Shown: piece after piece, positions 2,372 to 33,783 of the stretch
How the letters are laid out: the number at the start of each line of letters is the position of its first letter
Numbering within the stretch: the stretch's first letter is position 1
Assembly (NCBI RefSeq): GCF_029227855.1
Contig: NZ_CP074356.1
Source: Escherichia coli
GTDB taxonomy: Bacteria; Pseudomonadota; Gammaproteobacteria; Enterobacterales; Enterobacteriaceae
DNA: 64,000 bases
Direction: 5' to 3' (one strand)
Made by a program: the position numbers and the translations under genes
Notes under the pieces: model-generated
The model's database searches: none
What the model was told of the DNA's origin: nothing
What the model saw: only the letters and a program-made list of their open reading frames with translations

Positions 2372-4405
2372 TTATTTCACCTGATGACCCGGTTTAGCAC
2401 CGGCATCCGGGCTTAGCAGGAAAATATCTTTCCCGCCAGGACCGGCAGCCATCACCATGCCTTCGGAGATACCGAAGCGCATTTTACGTGGTGCCAGGTT
2501 AGCCACCATAATGGTGTGACGACCAATCAGTGCCTGCGGATCCGGGTAAGCAGAACGAATGCCGGAGAAGACATTGCGTTTTTCACCGCCGAGATCCAGC
2601 GTCAGGCGCAGCAGTTTGTCGGAACCTTCAACAAACTCTGCGTTTTCAATCAACGCCACGCGCAGGTCAACTTTGGCGAAGTCGTCAAAGGTGATGGTTT
2701 CCTGAATCGGATCATCTGCCAGTGGGCCAGTTACTGGCGCGGCAGTGGCTTTCACTTCTTCTTTAGAGGCTTCCACCAGTGCTTCAACCTGCTTCATGTC
2801 GATGCGGTTATACAGCGCTTTGAACGGATTCACTTTATGGCCCAACAGCGGTTGCTGGATACCATCCCAGGTCAGTTCCGTATTAAGGAATGCTTCTGCA
2901 CGCTCGGTCAGTTTCGGCAGTACCGGCTTCAGGTAAGTCATCAGCACGCGGAACAGGTTTATGCCCATCGAGCAAATTGCCTGCAGGTCGGCATCGCGGC
3001 CTTCCTGTTTTGCGACTACCCACGGAGCCTGTTCATCGACATAACGGTTAGCAAGATCAGCCAGCGCCATGATTTCGCGGATCGCTTTACCAAATTCGCG
3101 GCTTTCCCACGCTTCACCAATCACTTCAGCGGCATCAGTGAAGGTTTTGTACAGTTGCGGGTCAGCCAGTTCGCTTGCCAGCACACCGTCAAAACGCTTG
3201 TTGATAAAGCCCGCGTTACGGGAGGCCAGGTTAACCACTTTATTCACGATATCGGCATTCACACGCTGAACGAAATCTTCCAGGTTGAGATCGATATCAT
3301 CAATGCGCGAAGAGAGTTTCGCAGTGTAGTAGTAACGCAGGCTGTCGGCGTCAAAATGATTCAGCCAGGTGCTGGCCTTAATAAAGGTACCGCGAGACTT
3401 AGACATCTTCGCGCCGTTCACCGTCACATAGCCATGAACAAACAGGTTAGTCGGCTTGCGGAAGTTGCTGCCTTCCAGCATTGCTGGCCAGAACAGGCTG
3501 TGGAAGTAAACAATATCTTTGCCGATGAAGTGATACAGCTCGGCGGTGGAATCTTTCTTCCAGTATTCATCGAAGCTGGTGGTGTCGCCGCGTTTGTCGC
3601 ACAGATTCTTGAAGGAACCCATGTAGCCAATCGGCGCATCCAGCCAGACGTAGAAATATTTGCCCGGTGCGTTCGGAATTTCAAAACCGAAGTATGGCGC
3701 ATCGCGGGAGATATCCCACTGTTGCAGGCCAGATTCAAACCACTCCTGCATTTTGTTTGCCACTTGCTCCTGCAACGCGCCGCTGCGGGTCCATGCCTGC
3801 AACATTTCGCTGAAAGAGGGCAGATCAAAGAAGAAGTGTTCAGAATCACGCATTACCGGCGTAGCACCAGAAACCACCGATTTAGGCTCGATCAGCTCAG
3901 TCGGGCTGTAGGTCGCGCCACAAACTTCACAGTTATCGCCGTATTGATCCGGGGATTTACATTTCGGGCAGGTGCCTTTTACAAAACGGTCCGGCAGGAA
4001 CATGCCTTTTTCCGGATCGTACAGCTGAGAGATAGTGCGGTTTTTAATAAAACCGTTCTCTTTCAGGCGAGAATAAATAAGTTCTGACAACTGGCGGTTC
4101 TCTTCGCTGTGCGTCGAGTGATAGTTGTCATAGCTGATGTTAAAGCCTGCGAAATCAGTCTGATGCTCCTGACTCATTTCGCCAATCATCTGCTCCGGGG
4201 TGATACCAAGCTGCTGAGCTTTCAGCATGATCGGTGTGCCGTGGGCATCGTCGGCGCAAATGAAGTTGACCTCGTGGCCGCGCATTCGCTGGTAACGGAC
4301 CCAGACATCAGCCTGGATGTGCTCCAGCATATGGCCGAGGTGGATTGAGCCGTTAGCGTACGGCAGTGCGCACGTCACCAGAATTTTCTTCGCGACTTGA
4401 GTCAT
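2372..4405 (-). CDS. metG: Methionine--tRNA ligase
   Basis: 680-aa ORF with class I HLGH (HIGH) and KMSKS motifs; start placed at [12 protein letters not shown] to give 677 aa. Confidence 0.95.
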
Positions 4406-4536
4406 AGTAGGCATTACTTCTTAATAGTGAAAAGGGGTTAGATAGTACCAAATGGGAAAATGTTAAGTAAGTACTTCTCTATATTCTTCAGGTAAACTAT
4501 CAGCTGATGGTTTATCTATACAAAAAAGGAGTCGGG

Positions 4537-5646
4537 ATGAACGAACAATCCCAGGCCAAATCACCAGAAGCCTTGCGCGCAATGGTCGCCGGGACACTGG
4601 CCAATTTTCAGCACCCAACCCTGAAGCATAACCTCACCACGCTGAAAGCGTTGCACCATGTCGCCTGGATGGACGACACGTTGCATGTGGAACTGGTTAT
4701 GCCATTCGTCTGGCATAGCGCGTTCGAAGAGTTAAAAGAGCAATGTAGCGCCGAACTGCTGCGCATCACCGGGGCGAAAGCTATCGACTGGAAACTGTCG
4801 CACAATATCGCCACCTTAAAACGCGTGAAGAATCAGCCGGGAATTAACGGCGTGAAGAACATCATTGCGGTCAGCTCCGGTAAAGGCGGCGTGGGTAAAT
4901 CTTCCACGGCGGTAAACCTGGCGTTGGCACTCGCGGCGGAAGGGGCGAAAGTCGGCATTCTGGACGCCGATATCTACGGCCCATCAATCCCCACCATGCT
5001 GGGCGCAGAAAATCAGCGTCCAACTTCGCCGGACGGTACCCATATGGCACCGATTATGTCTCATGGACTGGCAACCAATTCAATTGGTTATCTGGTCACT
5101 GACGACAATGCGATGGTGTGGCGTGGTCCGATGGCGAGCAAGGCGTTAATGCAGATGTTGCAGGAAACCTTGTGGCCGGATCTCGACTATCTGGTGCTTG
5201 ATATGCCGCCAGGCACCGGTGACATTCAATTGACACTGGCACAAAACATTCCAGTAACTGGCGCGGTAGTGGTCACCACCCCGCAGGACATTGCGTTGAT
5301 CGATGCGAAAAAAGGCATTGTGATGTTCGAGAAAGTCGAGGTTCCGGTGCTCGGTATTGTCGAGAACATGAGTGTGCATATTTGCAGTAACTGTGGTCAC
5401 CATGAACCGATTTTCGGTACCGGTGGTGCTGAGAAACTGGCTGAAAAATACCACACACAGCTGCTGGGGCAGATGCCGTTACACATCTCCTTACGTGAGG
5501 ATCTCGATAAAGGCACGCCAACGGTTATCAGCCGTCCGGAGAGCGAATTTACCGCTATCTACCGCCAGCTGGCTGACCGCGTTGCAGCTCAGCTCTACTG
5601 GCAGGGTGAAGTCATTCCAGGCGAGATTTCCTTCCGCGCGGTCTAA
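4537..5646 (+). CDS. apbC: Fe-S cluster carrier ATPase Mrp/ApbC
   Basis: ORF 4507..5646; start placed at MNEQSQAK (369 aa); Walker A GKGGVGKSST and ParA/MinD-like fold motifs. Confidence 0.9.
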   Translation: MNEQSQAKSPEALRAMVAGTLANFQHPTLKHNLTTLKALHHVAWMDDTLHVELVMPFVWHSAFEELKEQCSAELLRITGAKAIDWKLSHNIATLKRVKNQPGINGVKNIIAVSSGKGGVGKSSTAVNLALALAAEGAKVGILDADIYGPSIPTMLGAENQRPTSPDGTHMAPIMSHGLATNSIGYLVTDDNAMVWRGPMASKALMQMLQETLWPDLDYLVLDMPPGTGDIQLTLAQNIPVTGAVVVTTPQDIALIDAKKGIVMFEKVEVPVLGIVENMSVHICSNCGHHEPIFGTGGAEKLAEKYHTQLLGQMPLHISLREDLDKGTPTVISRPESEFTAIYRQLADRVAAQLYWQGEVIPGEISFRAV

Positions 5647-5675
5647 CGCCTATTAACCATTCTGGTTATTCTTCA

Positions 5676-5717
5676 TACACCGCAGAGATGTTACATTGAT
5701 GCGGTGTATTTGTTTTT
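5676..5717 (+). terminator. Rho-independent terminator after apbC
   Basis: Inverted repeat tacaccgca (5676-5684) / tgcggtgta (5700-5708) followed by tttgttttt. Confidence 0.5.
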
Positions 5718-5908
5718 GCCGCATTAATGAACACTTATTTAATACTGCGAATATTCTGCGGACCTTCGTCCGAAACTCTACAAAGTCGATTGATCGTACA
5801 GGCAATGCTTCATTATCATCCTTCGTGGCTGTGTAGTGGATGTACAGCTATAGTTTGTTATGCACTCATTCTATCCAGGCATAACCTTTACTACAGGGAT
5901 AACGTTCA

Positions 5909-6190
5909 ATGAATAAGTATTGGCTGTCAGGAATTATTTTTCTTGCCTATGGATTGGCTTCTCCCGCATTCTCTTCAGAGACTGCCACATTAGCGATTAA
6001 TGGCAGGATCAGTCCCCCAACATGCAGTATGGCTATGGTTAATGGTCAACCTCAACAGCATTGTGGTCAGTTAACGTATGATGTTGATACCCGTCATCAG
6101 GTTTCTTCGCCAGTCAAAGGTGTAACGACAGAAGTGGTTGTTGCAGGTAGCGATAGCAAACGTCGAATCGTGTTAAATCGCTACGATTAA
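5909..6190 (+). CDS. yehE: Small secreted protein YehE (DUF2574-like)
   Basis: 93-aa ORF with N-terminal signal peptide (..AYGLASPAFSSE), located upstream of the yeh fimbrial operon. Confidence 0.6.
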   Translation: MNKYWLSGIIFLAYGLASPAFSSETATLAINGRISPPTCSMAMVNGQPQQHCGQLTYDVDTRHQVSSPVKGVTTEVVVAGSDSKRRIVLNRYD

Positions 6191-6486
6191 TTTGCCACCC
6201 TGGTTTTTTAATCGAATTTAGAAAGCTGAAATCATCCGTGTGAATGATTTCAGCTTTTTTATTGATATCAATAATACCATTTACAAAAATCTGCATTAAT
6301 TAATAGATGTGATAAATATTTAATATGCTTAAGTATTTGTTGTATTTATATTGCAATAGTTAATTTGTTTTAAATCAATAAAACAATATGTTTACATTGC
6401 TGCAACTTTTTTTTGATGTGAGAAATTTGTTTCCAAGAGATACAGACTCTTAACAACCAAAAATAAATTTTATTAAGGAACATATT

Positions 6487-7029
6487 ATGAAACGTTCAAT
6501 TATTGCTGCCGCTGTCTTTTCTTCTTTTTTTATGAGCGCTGGGGTATTTGCCGCAGACGTTGATACCGGAACATTAACCATTAAAGGGAATATTGCAGAA
6601 TCTCCGTGTAAATTCGAAGCGGGTGGCGATTCAGTAAGTATTAATATGCCAACTGTACCAACCACTGTCTTTGAAGGTAAAGCTAAATACTCGACCTATG
6701 ATGATGCAGTCGGTGTAACCAGCAGCATGTTAAAAATTAGCTGTCCGAAAGAAGTTGCTGGTGTAAAACTCTCGTTGATTACCAACGATAAAATAACCGG
6801 AAACGATAAGGCGATAGCCAGTAGCAACGATACCGTGGGGTACTATCTCTATTTAGGTGATAACAGCGATGTCCTGGATGTTTCTGCACCTTTTAACATT
6901 GAGAGTTATAAAACAGCGGAAGGTCAATATGCTATTCCGTTTAAAGCAAAATACCTGAAGCTGACAGATAATTCAGTGCAATCAGGTGATGTGTTATCTT
7001 CTCTGGTTATGCGTGTGGCGCAGGATTAA
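6487..7029 (+). CDS. yehD: Fimbrial major subunit (chaperone-usher pathway)
   Basis: 180-aa ORF, signal peptide (..SAGVFAADV), conserved Cys pair and size typical of type 1-like pilins; first gene of a subunit-chaperone-usher-adhesin array. Confidence 0.8.
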   Translation: MKRSIIAAAVFSSFFMSAGVFAADVDTGTLTIKGNIAESPCKFEAGGDSVSINMPTVPTTVFEGKAKYSTYDDAVGVTSSMLKISCPKEVAGVKLSLITNDKITGNDKAIASSNDTVGYYLYLGDNSDVLDVSAPFNIESYKTAEGQYAIPFKAKYLKLTDNSVQSGDVLSSLVMRVAQD

Positions 7030-7109
7030 TAAATAAAATTTCAAGTTTCTCCAGGTAATAAACATGGCCGCTATCCCCATGGCGGCCTTTTAATTTAAGA
7101 GGCATTAAG

Positions 7110-7784
7110 ATGAAAGGATTATTTGCTTTACTCATTTCTTCTATGGTCCTTCCTGCACATGCCGGTATTGTTATCTACGGGACGCGTATTATTTACCCGG
7201 CAGAAAATAAAGAAGTGATGGTGCAGTTGATGAATCAGGGAAACCGTTCTTCGCTGCTGCAGGCGTGGATTGATGATGGTGATACGTCGTTACCACCAGA
7301 AAAAATTCAGGTTCCTTTCATGTTAACGCCACCAGTGGAAAAAATAGGGGCAAATTCCGGGCAGCAAGTAAAAATCAAAATTATGCCGAATAAACTGCCC
7401 ACTAATAAAGAGAGCATTTTTTATCTAAATGTTCTGGATATTCCACCAAATAGTCCAGAGCAAGAGGGCAAGAATGCACTGAAATTTGCAATGCAAAACA
7501 GAATCAAATTGTTTTACCGGCCTGCGGGTATTGCACCGGTAAATAAAGCGACATTTAAAAAGTTACTGGTAAATCGCAGTGGCAATGGATTGGTGATAAA
7601 AAATGACTCAGCAAATTGGGTAACGATTTCGGATGTCAAAGCTAATAATGTCAAAGTCAATTATGAAACTATTATGCTTGCCCCCTTAGAAAGTCAGAGT
7701 ATTAATGTCAAAAGTAATAATGCGAATAACTGGTATCTGACCATTATCGATGACCATGGCAACTATATTAGTGACAAAATTTAA
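7110..7784 (+). CDS. yehC: Periplasmic fimbrial chaperone (PapD-like)
   Basis: 224-aa ORF with signal peptide and PapD-like sequence pattern (..GTRIIYPAENKEVMVQLMNQG..). Confidence 0.85.
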   Translation: MKGLFALLISSMVLPAHAGIVIYGTRIIYPAENKEVMVQLMNQGNRSSLLQAWIDDGDTSLPPEKIQVPFMLTPPVEKIGANSGQQVKIKIMPNKLPTNKESIFYLNVLDIPPNSPEQEGKNALKFAMQNRIKLFYRPAGIAPVNKATFKKLLVNRSGNGLVIKNDSANWVTISDVKANNVKVNYETIMLAPLESQSINVKSNNANNWYLTIIDDHGNYISDKI

Positions 7785-29387: not shown

Positions 29388-29557
29388 GAATATTTTTTGG
29401 TAAGCGTCAAACATGCGCGTTCTGATTGTGCGTAGCCGGAACCTGTACGAGCACGATGCCGTTAAGTGAAAGGCATCGTGCTATGAAGGGGGATTCTATC
29501 GATGTGGTCAATGGAAGACGGTCACCTGGGATCAATCCGTCTCTATGGTTTATGCAC

Positions 29558-29584
29558 AAAAAATAAGCCCGTGTAAGGGAGATT
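29558..29584. other. Phage P2-type attachment core (attB) overlapping the CyaR 3' end; appears unoccupied
   Basis: Sequence aaaaaataagcccgtgtaagggagatt equals the P2 att core as recalled from memory; no ogr/P2-like genes flank it here. Confidence 0.45.
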
Positions 29585-29644
29585 ACACAGGCTAAGGAGG
29601 TGGTTCCTGGTACAGCTAGCATTTTATGGGTTATGTTTTTCAGC
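29558..29644 (-). ncRNA. cyaR: CyaR (RyeE) Hfq-dependent small RNA
   Basis: Minus strand reads GCUGAAAAACAUAACCCAUAAAAUGCUAGCUGUACCAGGAACCACCUCCUUAGCCUGUGUAAUCUCCCUUACACGGGCUUAUUUUUU, matching the CyaR sequence as recalled, including the terminal hairpin and U-tail. Confidence 0.8.
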
Positions 29645-29728
29645 GAAACAGATGATAACCTTAATAAATGCAGCTGTATGTGATCGGTTTCTAAGAATTT
29701 TCCATCCGGGAAAAATAATCGAAATTAA

Positions 29729-31090
29729 TCACTTACCGTGGGGGTTACGCGTGGTTTCCCCGGAGAAATTACGCATCAGCAGCGCGTAATTTAGCTCAAG
29801 ATCCTGCGGCACCGGGATCCACACAGTATAACCATCGCCCGGTGCGACCGGCATTGCTTCGCCTTTGGCGTTTTCCATGTGCTCAAGGGTAAAGTTAATG
29901 TTCCCTTGCGGCGTCATCAGCTCAAGGCTGTCGCCAACGGAGAATTTATTTTTCACCGCTACCGCCGCGAGGTCGCCCTTGCGCTCACTGGTAAACTCAC
30001 CAACAAACTGCTGGCGGTCAGAAACTGAATAACCGTATTCGTAGTTCTGATAATCGTCGTGAGTATGACGACGCAGGAAACCTTCGGTATAGCCACGATG
30101 CGCCAGACCTTCCAGGGTTTCCAGCAGGCTGGTATCGAATGGTTTTCCCGCAGCTGCGTCATCGATAGCTTTACGGTAAACCTGCGCGGTGCGTGCGCAA
30201 TAGTAGAAAGATTTGGTACGGCCTTCGATTTTCAGCGAATGCACGCCCATTTTGGTCAGGCGTTCAACATGGGCGATGGCGCGCAGATCTTTCGAGTTCA
30301 TGATGTAAGTGCCGTGCTCATCTTCAAACGCGGTCATATACTCGCCCGGACGCTGGGCTTCTTCGATCATAAACACTTTGTCGGTTGGTGCGCCGATCCC
30401 CAGCGTCGGTTCAACGTTTTGCACCGGAATCGGTTCGTACTTGTGTACGATGTTGCCGACGTCATCTTCTTTCCCTTCCTGGACGTTATACTCCCAGCGG
30501 CAGGCGTTGGTGCAGGTGCCCTGGTTCGGGTCGCGCTTGTTGATATAGCCAGAGAGCAGGCAGCGACCGGAGTAGGCCATGCACAGCGCGCCGTGAACGA
30601 AGATTTCGATCTCCATATCTGGCACCTGATTGCGGATCTCTTCAATCTCTTCCAGTGACAGTTCGCGAGAGAGGATCACGCGGGTCAGACCCATTTGCTG
30701 CCAGAATTTCACCGTCGCCCAGTTCACGGCGTTAGCCTGTACTGAGAGATGGATCGGCATTTCAGGGAAGTGCTCGCGCACCAGCATAATCAGCCCTGGA
30801 TCAGACATAATCAGCGCATCCGGCCCCATTTCCACCACCGGTTTCAGGTCACGGATAAAGGTTTTCAGCTTGGCGTTGTGCGGTGCAATGTTGACCACGA
30901 CATAAAACTTTTTCCCCAGCGCGTGGGCTTCATTGATGCCGAGCTGAAGATTTTCGTGGTTGAATTCGTTGTTGCGCACACGCAGGGAGTAACGCGGCTG
31001 GCCCGCATAAACAGCATCTGCGCCATAAGCGAAAGCGTAACGCATATTTTTCAGCGTTCCCGCCGGGGAAAGGAGTTCCGGTTTAAACAT
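29729..31090 (-). CDS. yegQ: Peptidase U32-family protein (tRNA hydroxylation protein TrhP / YegQ)
   Basis: 453-aa ORF with U32-family conserved Cys-rich region. Confidence 0.85.
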   Translation of the reverse strand: MFKPELLSPAGTLKNMRYAFAYGADAVYAGQPRYSLRVRNNEFNHENLQLGINEAHALGKKFYVVVNIAPHNAKLKTFIRDLKPVVEMGPDALIMSDPGLIMLVREHFPEMPIHLSVQANAVNWATVKFWQQMGLTRVILSRELSLEEIEEIRNQVPDMEIEIFVHGALCMAYSGRCLLSGYINKRDPNQGTCTNACRWEYNVQEGKEDDVGNIVHKYEPIPVQNVEPTLGIGAPTDKVFMIEEAQRPGEYMTAFEDEHGTYIMNSKDLRAIAHVERLTKMGVHSLKIEGRTKSFYYCARTAQVYRKAIDDAAAGKPFDTSLLETLEGLAHRGYTEGFLRRHTHDDYQNYEYGYSVSDRQQFVGEFTSERKGDLAAVAVKNKFSVGDSLELMTPQGNINFTLEHMENAKGEAMPVAPGDGYTVWIPVPQDLELNYALLMRNFSGETTRNPHGK

Positions 31091-31291
31091 AATTCTCTCG
31101 TTCTGATGACAGGTCAGATCCGCTTCACCTGATGAAGCGGCCAGGGGAGTGCCCCCACTTTAAGGGCGGGCATTGTAGCGCAATCGTCGGGGTTGGCTCC
31201 AGTGTAATTGTGATGAGCTTTTCGATGCCTGGCGTACAATTGACATCAGAATTGAGTATATTTACGACCGTGAATGTTAAGGAGTTAAAAC

Positions 31292-31897
31292 ATGTGGATG
31301 TTAAAGAAGGGATTCACTCTGGCTCTGTTGGTTCTGTTTTCTCTGCCCGCTACTGCCGGTCTTTCGCTGGAGGAGACTGCTCGCAAGGTGATTATCGGCT
31401 TTCAGCAAGAAGATGCTCAATTAATCAACTCATTAATTGATAAAAAAACGGGGTTGTATGTTCTTTTCCACCGTGGCGCTTCGATGGATGTCGAAAATTT
31501 TAAGTCAATTGATTTTAAAACGCCTGTTCCCGAGTATTTGCTGTGGCCTTCGGCAGGGGAGCATATTCCGCGAGATGAAGAGTTTGATAAGAAAACTATC
31601 CCGGAATTTGACTGTGAACGTGGCTGGAATAAGCACGGATATTTTATTAGCAGCAGCGATACACACCATAAAGTCAGCCGTAATTTGGTCTTCACGCAGA
31701 TGTTTGGTTCACCGCGAAACACTATTTCTGATGCGCAGATTGCCGCAGCGCGTCGAATGGAGTACGGGGCCGTGCGTGTGGTCGCTGCGCCAGAAAAGGG
31801 TAGCGACGGACTGGTATTTTATTTAAGTCAACTTTACGGTTATGACACTGACTGGTATCTGACGGTGGTGGATCAGATTGGTGATTGTGGGGCGTGA
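31292..31897 (+). CDS. Hypothetical secreted protein (signal peptide), unknown function
   Basis: 201-aa ORF; N-terminus MWMLKKGFTLALLVLFSLPATAGLS resembles a Sec signal peptide; no family motif recognised. Lies in a segment I do not recall at this position in K-12. Confidence 0.55.
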   Translation: MWMLKKGFTLALLVLFSLPATAGLSLEETARKVIIGFQQEDAQLINSLIDKKTGLYVLFHRGASMDVENFKSIDFKTPVPEYLLWPSAGEHIPRDEEFDKKTIPEFDCERGWNKHGYFISSSDTHHKVSRNLVFTQMFGSPRNTISDAQIAAARRMEYGAVRVVAAPEKGSDGLVFYLSQLYGYDTDWYLTVVDQIGDCGA

Positions 31898-31927
31898 TAA
31901 AGATTTATCCGCCCGCAAGCAGTGATG

Positions 31928-33328
31928 TTATTTGAAGGGAATGTAACCCCATAATCTGTTGTGAAGTTCCGGATTGCGGGTAAAAAGCGCCTGAAGTTGC
32001 TGACGCTGGGGAGCATTCGGTTGAATGCCTGAAAGATTGAAATTGCGTTGCCATATTGCGAGCTGTTTATCTGCAAATTCTTCAGTTAGCTTGTGTTGCG
32101 ATTGCAGAAGAAGAATTAAACCGTCCCATTTGTTCAAGTTAGGATACAACCGACAATATGCGCAAGCATGTTTAACTGACGGTGCGTTTTCCAGCAACTG
32201 ACGTATTTCCTCGAACGTGAGCGGAACTCGACACCATACACAGATGTTAACCATAAATCGAAGCCCGGAGGCGTCCGGGTTAGCCAGTGTGGTCAGAATA
32301 ATCCCTTTGACACCACCATCAGGATTGGCTTTCGCAAGAATATACATAGCGGCTAATCGCAGTGGGAATACATCCTGTAATAATCCCCATTCTGCCAGTT
32401 TTAAAATATTGGCATCATGAATGGAGTCCAGCCCGTATAAAGCTGCCCGGCGCTGTGAGGGAGTATATTCAGTCGAGGTGACAACATGACGCCAGAATTG
32501 CGCAACATCCATGACGTCATTAAGCATGTTTTTAGCGCGTAGACGGATCAACATATTGTTATCCAGCAGTAATGCGCCGTACAACTCCGGAGGAATTTCT
32601 ATAGCTCGGTCAGTAAGGCTAAACAACGTTGCTTGTCGAATACGCGGCCAGCGGTCTTTTAACAGACGAGTTAATACCGCTTCGCTTAACGGTAATTGTT
32701 GACGCAGCCAGTGGGTGACCGCCAGCATTCGTAACCCTTCGTCGGGCTGCTTGAGTATTAAAAGCAGCGAAGATTCATCATTAAAGTAGCCATATTCAAT
32801 CAGCGTTTGTAATACTGCGCGGGAGAGTTTTTTATCAGGGCAAGTAAGCCAACACGTTAATTGTGGACGGCTATTTTCTGTCAATAAAAATCTAAGTATC
32901 TCGTCTACAAATGCACGGTGATCGTAACGCTGGCATTGGAGAAGGTTACGTATCATGGGAAGATTAACGGCAAATGCCGCTGCATTCTTACCCTTCTTTA
33001 AATGACGTAACGCTATGGTTGCAGCAAGGCGAACCTCTTTTACCCAGTCATTAGCTGCAAGTAATAATTCTTCTATAGCTGCAACATCCTCTTTTTGTCC
33101 CAGACATTGCACGGCCTTTTCTCGTATATATCCATTGTGGTGATAGGTAAGCTGGCAAAGAACCAGAGTATTGTTGAGATCACAATCATGCGCTATATAA
33201 TTGCCTGGATCGGCTATCATCGCCTGGAGTTGTTGCTGGATAAGAAATAATTCACAGTCAACAGAATTATTCATTTCGACGTTAAACAAAACCCTGCGTG
33301 TAAATAATGTACGCAATCCTTTGAGCAT
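31928..33328 (-). CDS. Hypothetical HEAT/ARM-like repeat protein, unknown function
   Basis: 466-aa ORF; alpha-helical repeats resembling PBS-lyase HEAT repeats (..REKAVQCLGQKEDVAAIEELLLAANDWVKEVRLAATIALRHL..); convergent with the 201-aa gene. Confidence 0.55.
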   Translation of the reverse strand: MLKGLRTLFTRRVLFNVEMNNSVDCELFLIQQQLQAMIADPGNYIAHDCDLNNTLVLCQLTYHHNGYIREKAVQCLGQKEDVAAIEELLLAANDWVKEVRLAATIALRHLKKGKNAAAFAVNLPMIRNLLQCQRYDHRAFVDEILRFLLTENSRPQLTCWLTCPDKKLSRAVLQTLIEYGYFNDESSLLLILKQPDEGLRMLAVTHWLRQQLPLSEAVLTRLLKDRWPRIRQATLFSLTDRAIEIPPELYGALLLDNNMLIRLRAKNMLNDVMDVAQFWRHVVTSTEYTPSQRRAALYGLDSIHDANILKLAEWGLLQDVFPLRLAAMYILAKANPDGGVKGIILTTLANPDASGLRFMVNICVWCRVPLTFEEIRQLLENAPSVKHACAYCRLYPNLNKWDGLILLLQSQHKLTEEFADKQLAIWQRNFNLSGIQPNAPQRQQLQALFTRNPELHNRLWGYIPFK

Positions 33329-33410
33329 AATTTTCCTTATCAGTTATGAGGAGAAAACTCATTTCATGATTAATAATTTCTTGAGGGATAGTAACTCTGT
33401 GATGAGAGAA

Positions 33411-33445
33411 AATAAAGCCGGACGCCAACAACACGCGCCCGGCAT
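33411..33445 (-). terminator. Probable rho-independent terminator of yegP
   Basis: Minus-strand hairpin gccgggcgc ... gcgtccggc followed by tttatttt. Confidence 0.4.
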
Positions 33446-33450
33446 CGTAA

Positions 33451-33783
33451 TTACGTATTGTCTTTTACCGTCTGGCTTGTGCCATTGGCTTTAACGGAGG
33501 CAATTCCGGTTTCACGAGATTGCGCGGTGGCGTACATTTGGCTGGAGCCGATAATTTGATGATTGGCGGCTTTCAGATTGAAATAGAATTTGCCGTTGCT
33601 TGCCGTTTTTTTCTCATAGCGTTCTTCTTGCGGGCTGTTGCTACGCACCGACGCGATACCCTTTTCCGCAGAGGCTTTTGAGGTATACAGCTCGCTGGTG
33701 AGGATAGTCTCACCATTGCCCGCTTTTAGCACAAACCGGAACTGATTATCACTGCTCTTACTGAGTTCAAACCAACCAGCCAT
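33451..33783 (-). CDS. yegP: UPF0339-family protein YegP (tandem DUF1508 repeats)
   Basis: ORF 33451..33822; start placed at MAGWFELSK (110 aa); two internal repeats (..FRFVLKAGNGETI.. / ..FYFNLKAANHQII..). Confidence 0.8.
   Translation of the reverse strand: MAGWFELSKSSDNQFRFVLKAGNGETILTSELYTSKASAEKGIASVRSNSPQEERYEKKTASNGKFYFNLKAANHQIIGSSQMYATAQSRETGIASVKANGTSQTVKDNT

Follow-up and report, generated by a model that had tools for sequence, protein, structure and literature searches.

The window analysed here, a 64,000-nucleotide stretch of the Escherichia coli contig NZ_CP074356.1 (assembly GCF_029227855.1), carries about 2.2 kb of DNA between yegQ and yegP that is absent from the K-12-type allele. 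This segment encodes two proteins, open reading frame A (ORF-A) and ORF-B, the latter a HEAT-repeat protein whose gene is called the HEAT gene below. The segment is probably what survives of a once larger and older complement of accessory genes in the baeR–yegQ interval that E. coli has been losing piecemeal, and its two genes are probably independent of each other and non-enzymatic. ORF-A (31292–31897, plus strand) and the HEAT gene (31928–33328, minus strand) are convergent, with 30 nt between their stop codons. Both have good ribosome-binding sites, AAGGAG for ORF-A (31279–31284, plus strand, 7 nt 5' of the ATG) and AAGGAA for ORF-B (33333–33338, minus strand, 5' of the ATG). RefSeq labels ORF-A as "hypothetical protein" and ORF-B as "HEAT repeat domain-containing protein", and the yegQ–yegP stretch is 100% identical to that of E. 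coli JNEC-KY178. An earlier note on this DNA, made from the sequence alone, had described an AT-rich stretch with two convergent genes, one for a 201-residue protein with a signal peptide and one for a 466-residue all-helical HEAT protein, at a place where K-12 has only a short gap. In accordance, both ORFs are as described, the yegP–trhP (yegQ) gap in K-12 MG1655 is 146 bp, and the computed GC content of the variable segment is 44.3%, versus 53.9% for yegQ, 53.4% for baeR, 53–55% for the flanks overall (yegQ, baeR, and baeS), and 50.6% for the whole window.

The same-locus orthologues of both genes in several genera argue for old residence. The cross-genus picture comes from loci inspected one by one, and is not a genus-wide census. 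On a 123-kb metagenome contig of an enterobacterium, a HEAT gene (38% identity) lies between baeR and yegQ; HEAT genes are also found at the same locus in Yokenella regensburgei (40%) and in locus L005 (59%), where the gene order is baeR–TPR (228 residues)–HEAT–ParD–yegQ. ORF-A is found without HEAT between yegQ and baeR in Klebsiella aerogenes (56% identity). A 6.3-Mb enterobacterial genome (L016) carries an ORF-A that is 51% identical, together with a tandem paralogue and a TPR protein; the two paralogues have 199 and 204 residues (6001–6600 and 6671–7285) and align with an hhalign probability of 99.9. In Escherichia sp. MOD1-EC7003 (L022), the order is yegQ/ORF-A/HEAT/TPR/baeR, and both HEAT and TPR are split, into two ORFs apiece. 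In the same cross-genus comparisons YegQ and BaeR are 90–93% identical. ORF-A and HEAT are thus far more diverged than YegQ and BaeR, and therefore appear to have resided there long and to evolve very fast. In addition, the GC content of the HEAT orthologue equals that of the flanks in two other genera, which points to long residence. The interval would have been filled since before the enterobacterial genera split, with an old set comprising ORF-A, HEAT, an exported TPR protein, and ParDE, and the present alleles would have arisen by differential loss with some allele exchange.

The structure of the empty allele is consistent with loss. Alignment to K-12 and to other E. coli genomes, which the earlier note had suggested as a check, places the junctions of the variable segment at about 31182 and about 33411–33416. 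In particular, BLAST against the empty allele of strain KE51 shows that the left flank is kept to 31181 (positions 30991–31181 are identical) and that the right flank resumes at 33417. The conserved intergenic DNA next to yegQ (31091–31181) thus stands outside the variable segment. These first 91 nt are matched in 5,423 of the 5,426 complete E. coli genomes that make up our census. When the window is compared with other occupied alleles (ParDE, HEAT-only, CFT073-type, and IS1-disrupted), a further 25–30 nt, from 31182 to about 31211, are common to them and missing from the empty allele, and the left edge of the variable segment measured in this way is 31212. A filler of 22 nt, unrelated in sequence, replaces the common stretch in the empty allele. 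Since the empty allele lacks about 25 nt that every occupied allele has, the K-12-type allele looks like a deletion product, not a pristine insertion site. The K-12 state would accordingly be a deletion rather than the original empty site. The earlier note had also bounded the segment by two hairpins. One of them, the terminator-like hairpin of yegP (33417–33429, minus strand), is indeed the right boundary, being the start of a right flank common to all alleles; the other, CCGCTTCA-CCTGA-TGAAGCGG at 31120–31140, falls inside the conserved yegQ upstream region and bounds nothing.

The alternative history, in which a few E. coli lineages with a K-12-like empty yegQ–yegP site gained a small island by horizontal transfer and insertion, is rather unlikely. 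It would account for the rarity of the segment, of which at least 80% is covered in only 5 of the 5,426 genomes, so that K-12 and most E. coli lack it, as the earlier note had supposed. It would also account for the GC content of 44% against 53–55% in the flanks, for the mosaic similarity in which ORF-A is nearest to Escherichia sp. MOD1-EC7003, and for the alternative cargo at the spot, namely ParDE in 1,845 genomes and a CFT073-type cassette in about 296. However, no integrase or transposase is present at the locus, no target duplication or terminal repeats are seen, and the direct and inverted repeats flanking the segment are chance-level matches of 12–17 nt only. Phage copies of the segment are not found, and the plasmid records hold a single 312-nt fragment, on one of them. 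The same-locus orthologues in several genera are diverged far more deeply than E. coli itself, and the empty allele lacks sequence that is common to all occupied alleles. The earlier note had tied the insertion to an integration hotspot at CyaR and the P2 att site; CyaR stands beyond yegQ as seen from the segment, and nothing visible links the two. This part of the note is not borne out.

Piecemeal loss would be reflected in the census. ORF-A is present in 302 of the 5,426 genomes: 6 have a close allele, and the allele of the other 296 (CFT073, Nissle derivatives, and H22 among them) is about 89.5% identical. Any part of the HEAT gene is present in 96 genomes, and at least 80% of its full length in 39; the remaining HEAT genes have lost part of their length, contain an IS1 insertion, or appear in the annotation as two pieces. 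Among the database "homologues" of ORF-A, several (P0008, P0012, P0018, and P0020) are frameshifted versions of the CFT073-type allele, with identical N- and C-termini and middles out of frame. Therefore, ORF-A is pseudogenised or mis-sequenced in some strains. Because HEAT genes are hit by IS1, truncated, or split and ORF-A variants are frameshifted, the set would be in decay.

The rest of the census shows that the yegQ–yegP spot is multi-allelic. A ParDE toxin–antitoxin pair (2603–3197 in the E. coli locus L009) occupies it in 1,845 of the 5,426 genomes, and the exported TPR protein of about 240 residues is found in four complete E. coli genomes. By share, ParDE accounts for 34%, the CFT073-type cassette for about 5%, and HEAT variants for about 2%; we infer that the empty state, as in K-12 and KE51, is the majority allele, a state that was not counted directly. 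Other variable spots with alternative cargo likewise keep the same flanks around exchangeable contents, here empty, ParDE, the CFT073-type cassette, or HEAT variants. Unlike other cargo of variable spots, the genes in the window have no recognisable addiction, defence, or mobility function. Their synteny across genera fits retention and loss, not repeated capture. In some E. coli strains a truncated ParD lies between HEAT and yegQ (2826–2984 in L013), and a parD gene of 83 residues lies there in another species (9531–9782 in L005). ParD or its remnant stands beside HEAT, and therefore ParDE and HEAT were once neighbours.

Within this spot, ORF-A and the HEAT gene behave independently. The earlier note had suggested that they form one module, a secreted effector with a cytoplasmic immunity protein or a sensor with an effector, and had proposed their co-occurrence across genomes as a check. 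Strict co-occurrence is not observed: the two genes are together in 5 of the about 393 genomes that carry either. They are adjacent in the window, in four other complete genomes, and in MOD1-EC7003, and both HEAT repeats and NTF2 folds are recorded as immunity folds (PMC3482391). Against this, each gene stands alone at the locus in other genera, and in MOD1-EC7003 HEAT is split while ORF-A is intact. The two genes are convergent and therefore share no transcript. Pfam, NCBIfam, PADLOC, and PHROGs yield no domain of a toxin or an enzyme for either protein. Moreover, their predicted compartments differ, which argues against a complex. A paired module is therefore very improbable.

Both genes are genuinely coding, and the purifying selection that acts on them is weak but real. 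The ratio of non-synonymous to synonymous substitution rates (dN/dS) within Escherichia is 0.28–0.29 for ORF-A and 0.24–0.51 for HEAT, for which it is 0.14 against the 59% identical orthologue. The corresponding values for yegQ, baeR, and yegP are 0.00–0.056. ORF-A and HEAT thus evolve 5–20 times faster than their neighbours at non-synonymous sites, and gene-wide dN/dS exceeds 1 in neither. The alleles are mosaic within the segment (compared over 31292–33236). The 5' half of the HEAT gene (N-terminal codons) is 99.1% identical to strain M160133 versus 89.9% to MOD1-EC7003, and the 3' half is 97.1% identical to M160133. Alleles have clearly been exchanged by homologous recombination through the conserved flanks, atop vertical descent.

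ORF-A is a predicted Sec-exported soluble periplasmic protein without a conserved lipobox cysteine. Its N-terminus has two lysines and a hydrophobic core (Kyte–Doolittle 11-residue mean of 2.65 at residue 8), after which come A20-T21-A22 and G23. The signal peptide covers residues 1–22 (31292–31357, plus strand), and signal peptidase I is predicted to cleave after A20-T21-A22. All ORF-A homologues retain the AxA motif; the +2 cysteine of some alleles is not conserved. The predicted fold is a confident NTF2-like alpha+beta cone, in which N-terminal helices pack into a curved antiparallel sheet, and the cone carries an insertion of about 45 residues (71–115). Residues G54, G62, C108, E157, F176, W188, D194, and C199 are conserved family-wide, and the C-terminus has the motif WYLT..D...DC[SG]A. 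Both cysteines of the mature protein are among these residues, C108 lying in the inserted loop and C199 at the C-terminus.

The family to which ORF-A belongs is exported, NTF2-like, undescribed, and uncurated, with no Pfam entry. ORF-A has no Pfam match even at E<=10 and none in NCBIfam or PADLOC; its PHROGs match is at chance level, and the family profile retrieves only chance RecA matches from PDB sequences. A word-indexed search returns close enterobacterial relatives only, several of them frameshifted. A full HMMER profile search returns 209 representative clusters at E<=1e-3 (clusters defined at 50% identity) from Enterobacterales, Bacteroidota, Acinetobacter, and other taxa. Most members are stand-alone proteins of 190–230 residues with an N-terminal signal or lipoprotein sequence; some form the C-terminal domain of larger secreted proteins with N-terminal LRR_4, lipocalin-like DUF4923, or DUF7738 domains. 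The AFDB50 entries that Foldseek matches are annotated as uncharacterised, as "lipoproteins", or, for one from Salmonella, as "putative exported protein"; one is a DUF4348 protein, and a few are SPOR-domain fusions. Where the neighbourhoods of distant members were inspected, they contain no toxin genes, and no partner recurs; several of the contigs are too short to show neighbours. With members of the NTF2-like superfamily (SnoaL/ketosteroid-isomerase-like/cystatin-like; PDB 3bb9, 3fsd, and 3f40), ORF-A has a sequence identity of just 4–15%, and no NTF2-like family of Pfam gives a match. In contrast to that superfamily, ORF-A is exported, ends in a conserved DC[SG]A motif of its own, and has a pair of conserved cysteines as well as the conserved insertion of about 45 residues.

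The HEAT protein is predicted to be all-helical (AlphaFold2 pLDDT 85), a HEAT/ARM-type alpha-solenoid of about 28 helices arranged in tandem helix-turn-helix repeats. Its sole Pfam match is HEAT_2 at residues 57–108 (E 4.4e-4), and its PDB profile matches are alphaRep/HEAT designs over the same repeat. It has 11 cysteines and neither a signal peptide nor a hydrophobic segment, which fits a cytoplasmic location. The family is small, with 18 clusters, all enterobacterial, and no catalytic domain or enzyme family is found for ORF-B in Pfam, NCBIfam, PADLOC, or PHROGs. The earlier note had seen no recognisable catalytic motif in either protein and had asked whether both have characterised housekeeping homologues; neither is found for ORF-A or ORF-B. 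We rejected HEAT-ARM_XIII of PADLOC-DB 2.0 as an identity for ORF-B, as the match (24.7 bits, 180 of 1,972 profile positions) is at the level of the repeat; the defence-system partner genes of HEAT-ARM_XIII are not present, and ORF-A has no PADLOC match. The better-known HEAT proteins of this kind are E. coli YibA and PBS-lyase-type proteins (PDB 1oyz; alphaRep). ORF-B differs from them in size (466 versus 280 residues) and is 9% identical to YibA over about 164 aligned residues; in contrast to YibA-type HEAT proteins, its family is confined to a few Enterobacteriaceae. We know of no established function of YibA.

ORF-A and HEAT are, on the predicted structures, most likely both non-enzymatic binding proteins. 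ORF-A would be exported by Sec and cleaved after A22. A putative disulfide between C108 and C199 would tie the inserted loop to the C-terminus and so staple the fold. In the periplasm, ORF-A would act without enzymatic activity, binding or inhibiting a small ligand, an envelope protein, or an incoming protein. The HEAT protein would be a dispensable cytoplasmic scaffold for protein–protein interactions, and in some relatives it would be transcribed downstream of the exported TPR protein.

Binding proteins that evolve fast at a variable spot might instead be orphan immunity proteins or inhibitors in a small conflict locus, with ORF-A directed, by way of its conserved and putatively disulfide-stapled loop, against a periplasm-acting toxin or lytic enzyme and HEAT against a cytoplasm-acting toxin. 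Polymorphic toxin systems provide a precedent in the immunity families Imm-NTF2, Imm-NTF2-2, and Imm-HEAT (Zhang et al. 2012, PMC3482391). The dN/dS values of 5–20 times those of the flanks, the presence/absence polymorphism together with the tandem ORF-A paralogues, ParDE as a neighbour, and binding folds without catalytic motifs would all suit such a role. Imm-NTF2 and Imm-NTF2-2 share with ORF-A the NTF2 fold, the small size, and the variable loci. However, they differ from ORF-A, which has a signal peptide and no profile match: the Pfam Imm-NTF2 models match neither ORF-A nor any of the 20 family members. The conserved residues listed for Imm-NTF2 and Imm-NTF2-2 (W,W,W and Y,W; PMC3482391) do not correspond to the motif of the ORF-A family. 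No toxin, Rhs, contact-dependent inhibition (CDI), or type VI secretion system (T6SS) gene lies beside any family member inspected. In particular, neither Tox-NucA nor Tox-JAB-2 is next to ORF-A, whose neighbours are yegQ, HEAT, yegP, and baeR, and the related loci inspected have no toxin gene. Many family members are C-terminal domains of secreted proteins or AFDB "lipoproteins", more like an envelope module, and dN/dS stays below 1. An orphan immunity role for each gene is therefore distinctly unlikely. The same low probability attaches to its extension, in which the ORF-A family would form a novel class of immunity proteins or inhibitors of the periplasm, and the baeR–yegQ interval would be a small conflict-gene locus beside an envelope-stress regulator, with ORF-A, an Imm-HEAT-type HEAT protein, and ParDE as its orphan immunity genes.

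We therefore retain the reading of an old accessory set with two independent non-enzymatic genes, against which several points weigh. ORF-A of the window is 98.4% identical to that of MOD1-EC7003, a cryptic-clade Escherichia, and yegQ is 95.2% identical. The synonymous divergence (dS) of ORF-A from CFT073 is 0.32, and that of the flanking genes is 0.09. In Escherichia, the GC content of both genes is 44–47%, as in horizontally acquired DNA. Alleles have been imported by recombination, so "ancestral" cannot mean strictly vertical. As to function, the reading is inferred from fold and localisation only, and the C108–C199 disulfide is a proposal from residue conservation. NTF2-like proteins include enzymes, and ORF-A could be enzymatic, with the conserved D41, E157, and D194 lining a catalytic pocket.

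The exported TPR protein of the proposed set has about 240 residues; its N-terminal half is TPR-like, and its C-terminal domain contains cysteine. It is encoded directly upstream of HEAT in several genera (4007–4726 in L015, minus strand; 7310–7996 in L005; 7614–8336 in L016, minus strand; 4438–5235 in L022, split), with a gap of 4 nt in L005. It is 64–66% identical between genera and has nothing significant in PADLOC or NCBIfam. We considered the 228-residue protein upstream of HEAT in L005 as a relative of ORF-A and rejected it; it is unrelated and is this TPR protein. In Yokenella, an ORF of 445 residues (8364–9701 in L011, minus strand; 46.9% GC) is convergent with HEAT and occupies the position of ORF-A. 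It has no Pfam match, and it was rejected as a relative of HEAT, to which it has no similarity. The yegP gene (DUF1508) is missing from the baeR–yegQ interval in all six loci inspected outside E. coli, and yegP itself may be a lineage-specific occupant of the interval.

In CFT073 and H22, the two genomes inspected for this allele, ORF-A stands at the end of a co-directional cassette with the order PcfJ-domain/DUF1266/DUF4034/ORF-A (2846–7561 in CFT073, L012; 14086–18801 in H22, L010). The stops and starts of the first two cassette genes overlap or nearly abut. The three proteins encoded upstream of ORF-A have no significant PADLOC or NCBIfam match. No relevant literature turned up for the cassette proteins (DUF4034/DUF1266), for the CFT073 genes, or for a yegP/yegQ hotspot. 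An entry for Salmonella in the table of a motility screen could not be linked to ORF-A and was set aside.

The surroundings of the segment follow the plus-strand order yegS (minus strand), yegR (plus strand), CyaR (29561–29646, minus strand; Rfam, 100.7 bits), yegQ (trhP; 29729–31090, minus strand), ORF-A, HEAT, and yegP (33451–33783, minus strand), with baeR, baeS, and mdtD beyond yegP. In the interval 29388–29728 of the window, CyaR leads directly to yegR; K-12 has a P2-derived remnant there (compared over 3615–4490 in L021). This remnant, absent from the window, comprises ogrK, yegZ, and the cryptic prophage PR-X of K-12. A promoter search finds none above chance for ORF-A or ORF-B. Inspection by eye, with no formal test, finds no BaeR or CpxR box 5' of ORF-A.

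The locus is an ordinary variable accessory locus that holds two uncharacterised genes. What appeared to be a mystery insert is probably an ordinary case of differential loss of genes and of exchange of alleles within a single interval, and a false lead towards an effector/immunity pair is removed. As by-products, the yegQ–yegP/baeR interval is documented as a multi-allelic spot in E. coli, and the ORF-A-like family is delineated. The family is fairly widespread, with members in uropathogenic strains such as CFT073 and UTI89, and it is a candidate for curation as a new domain family.

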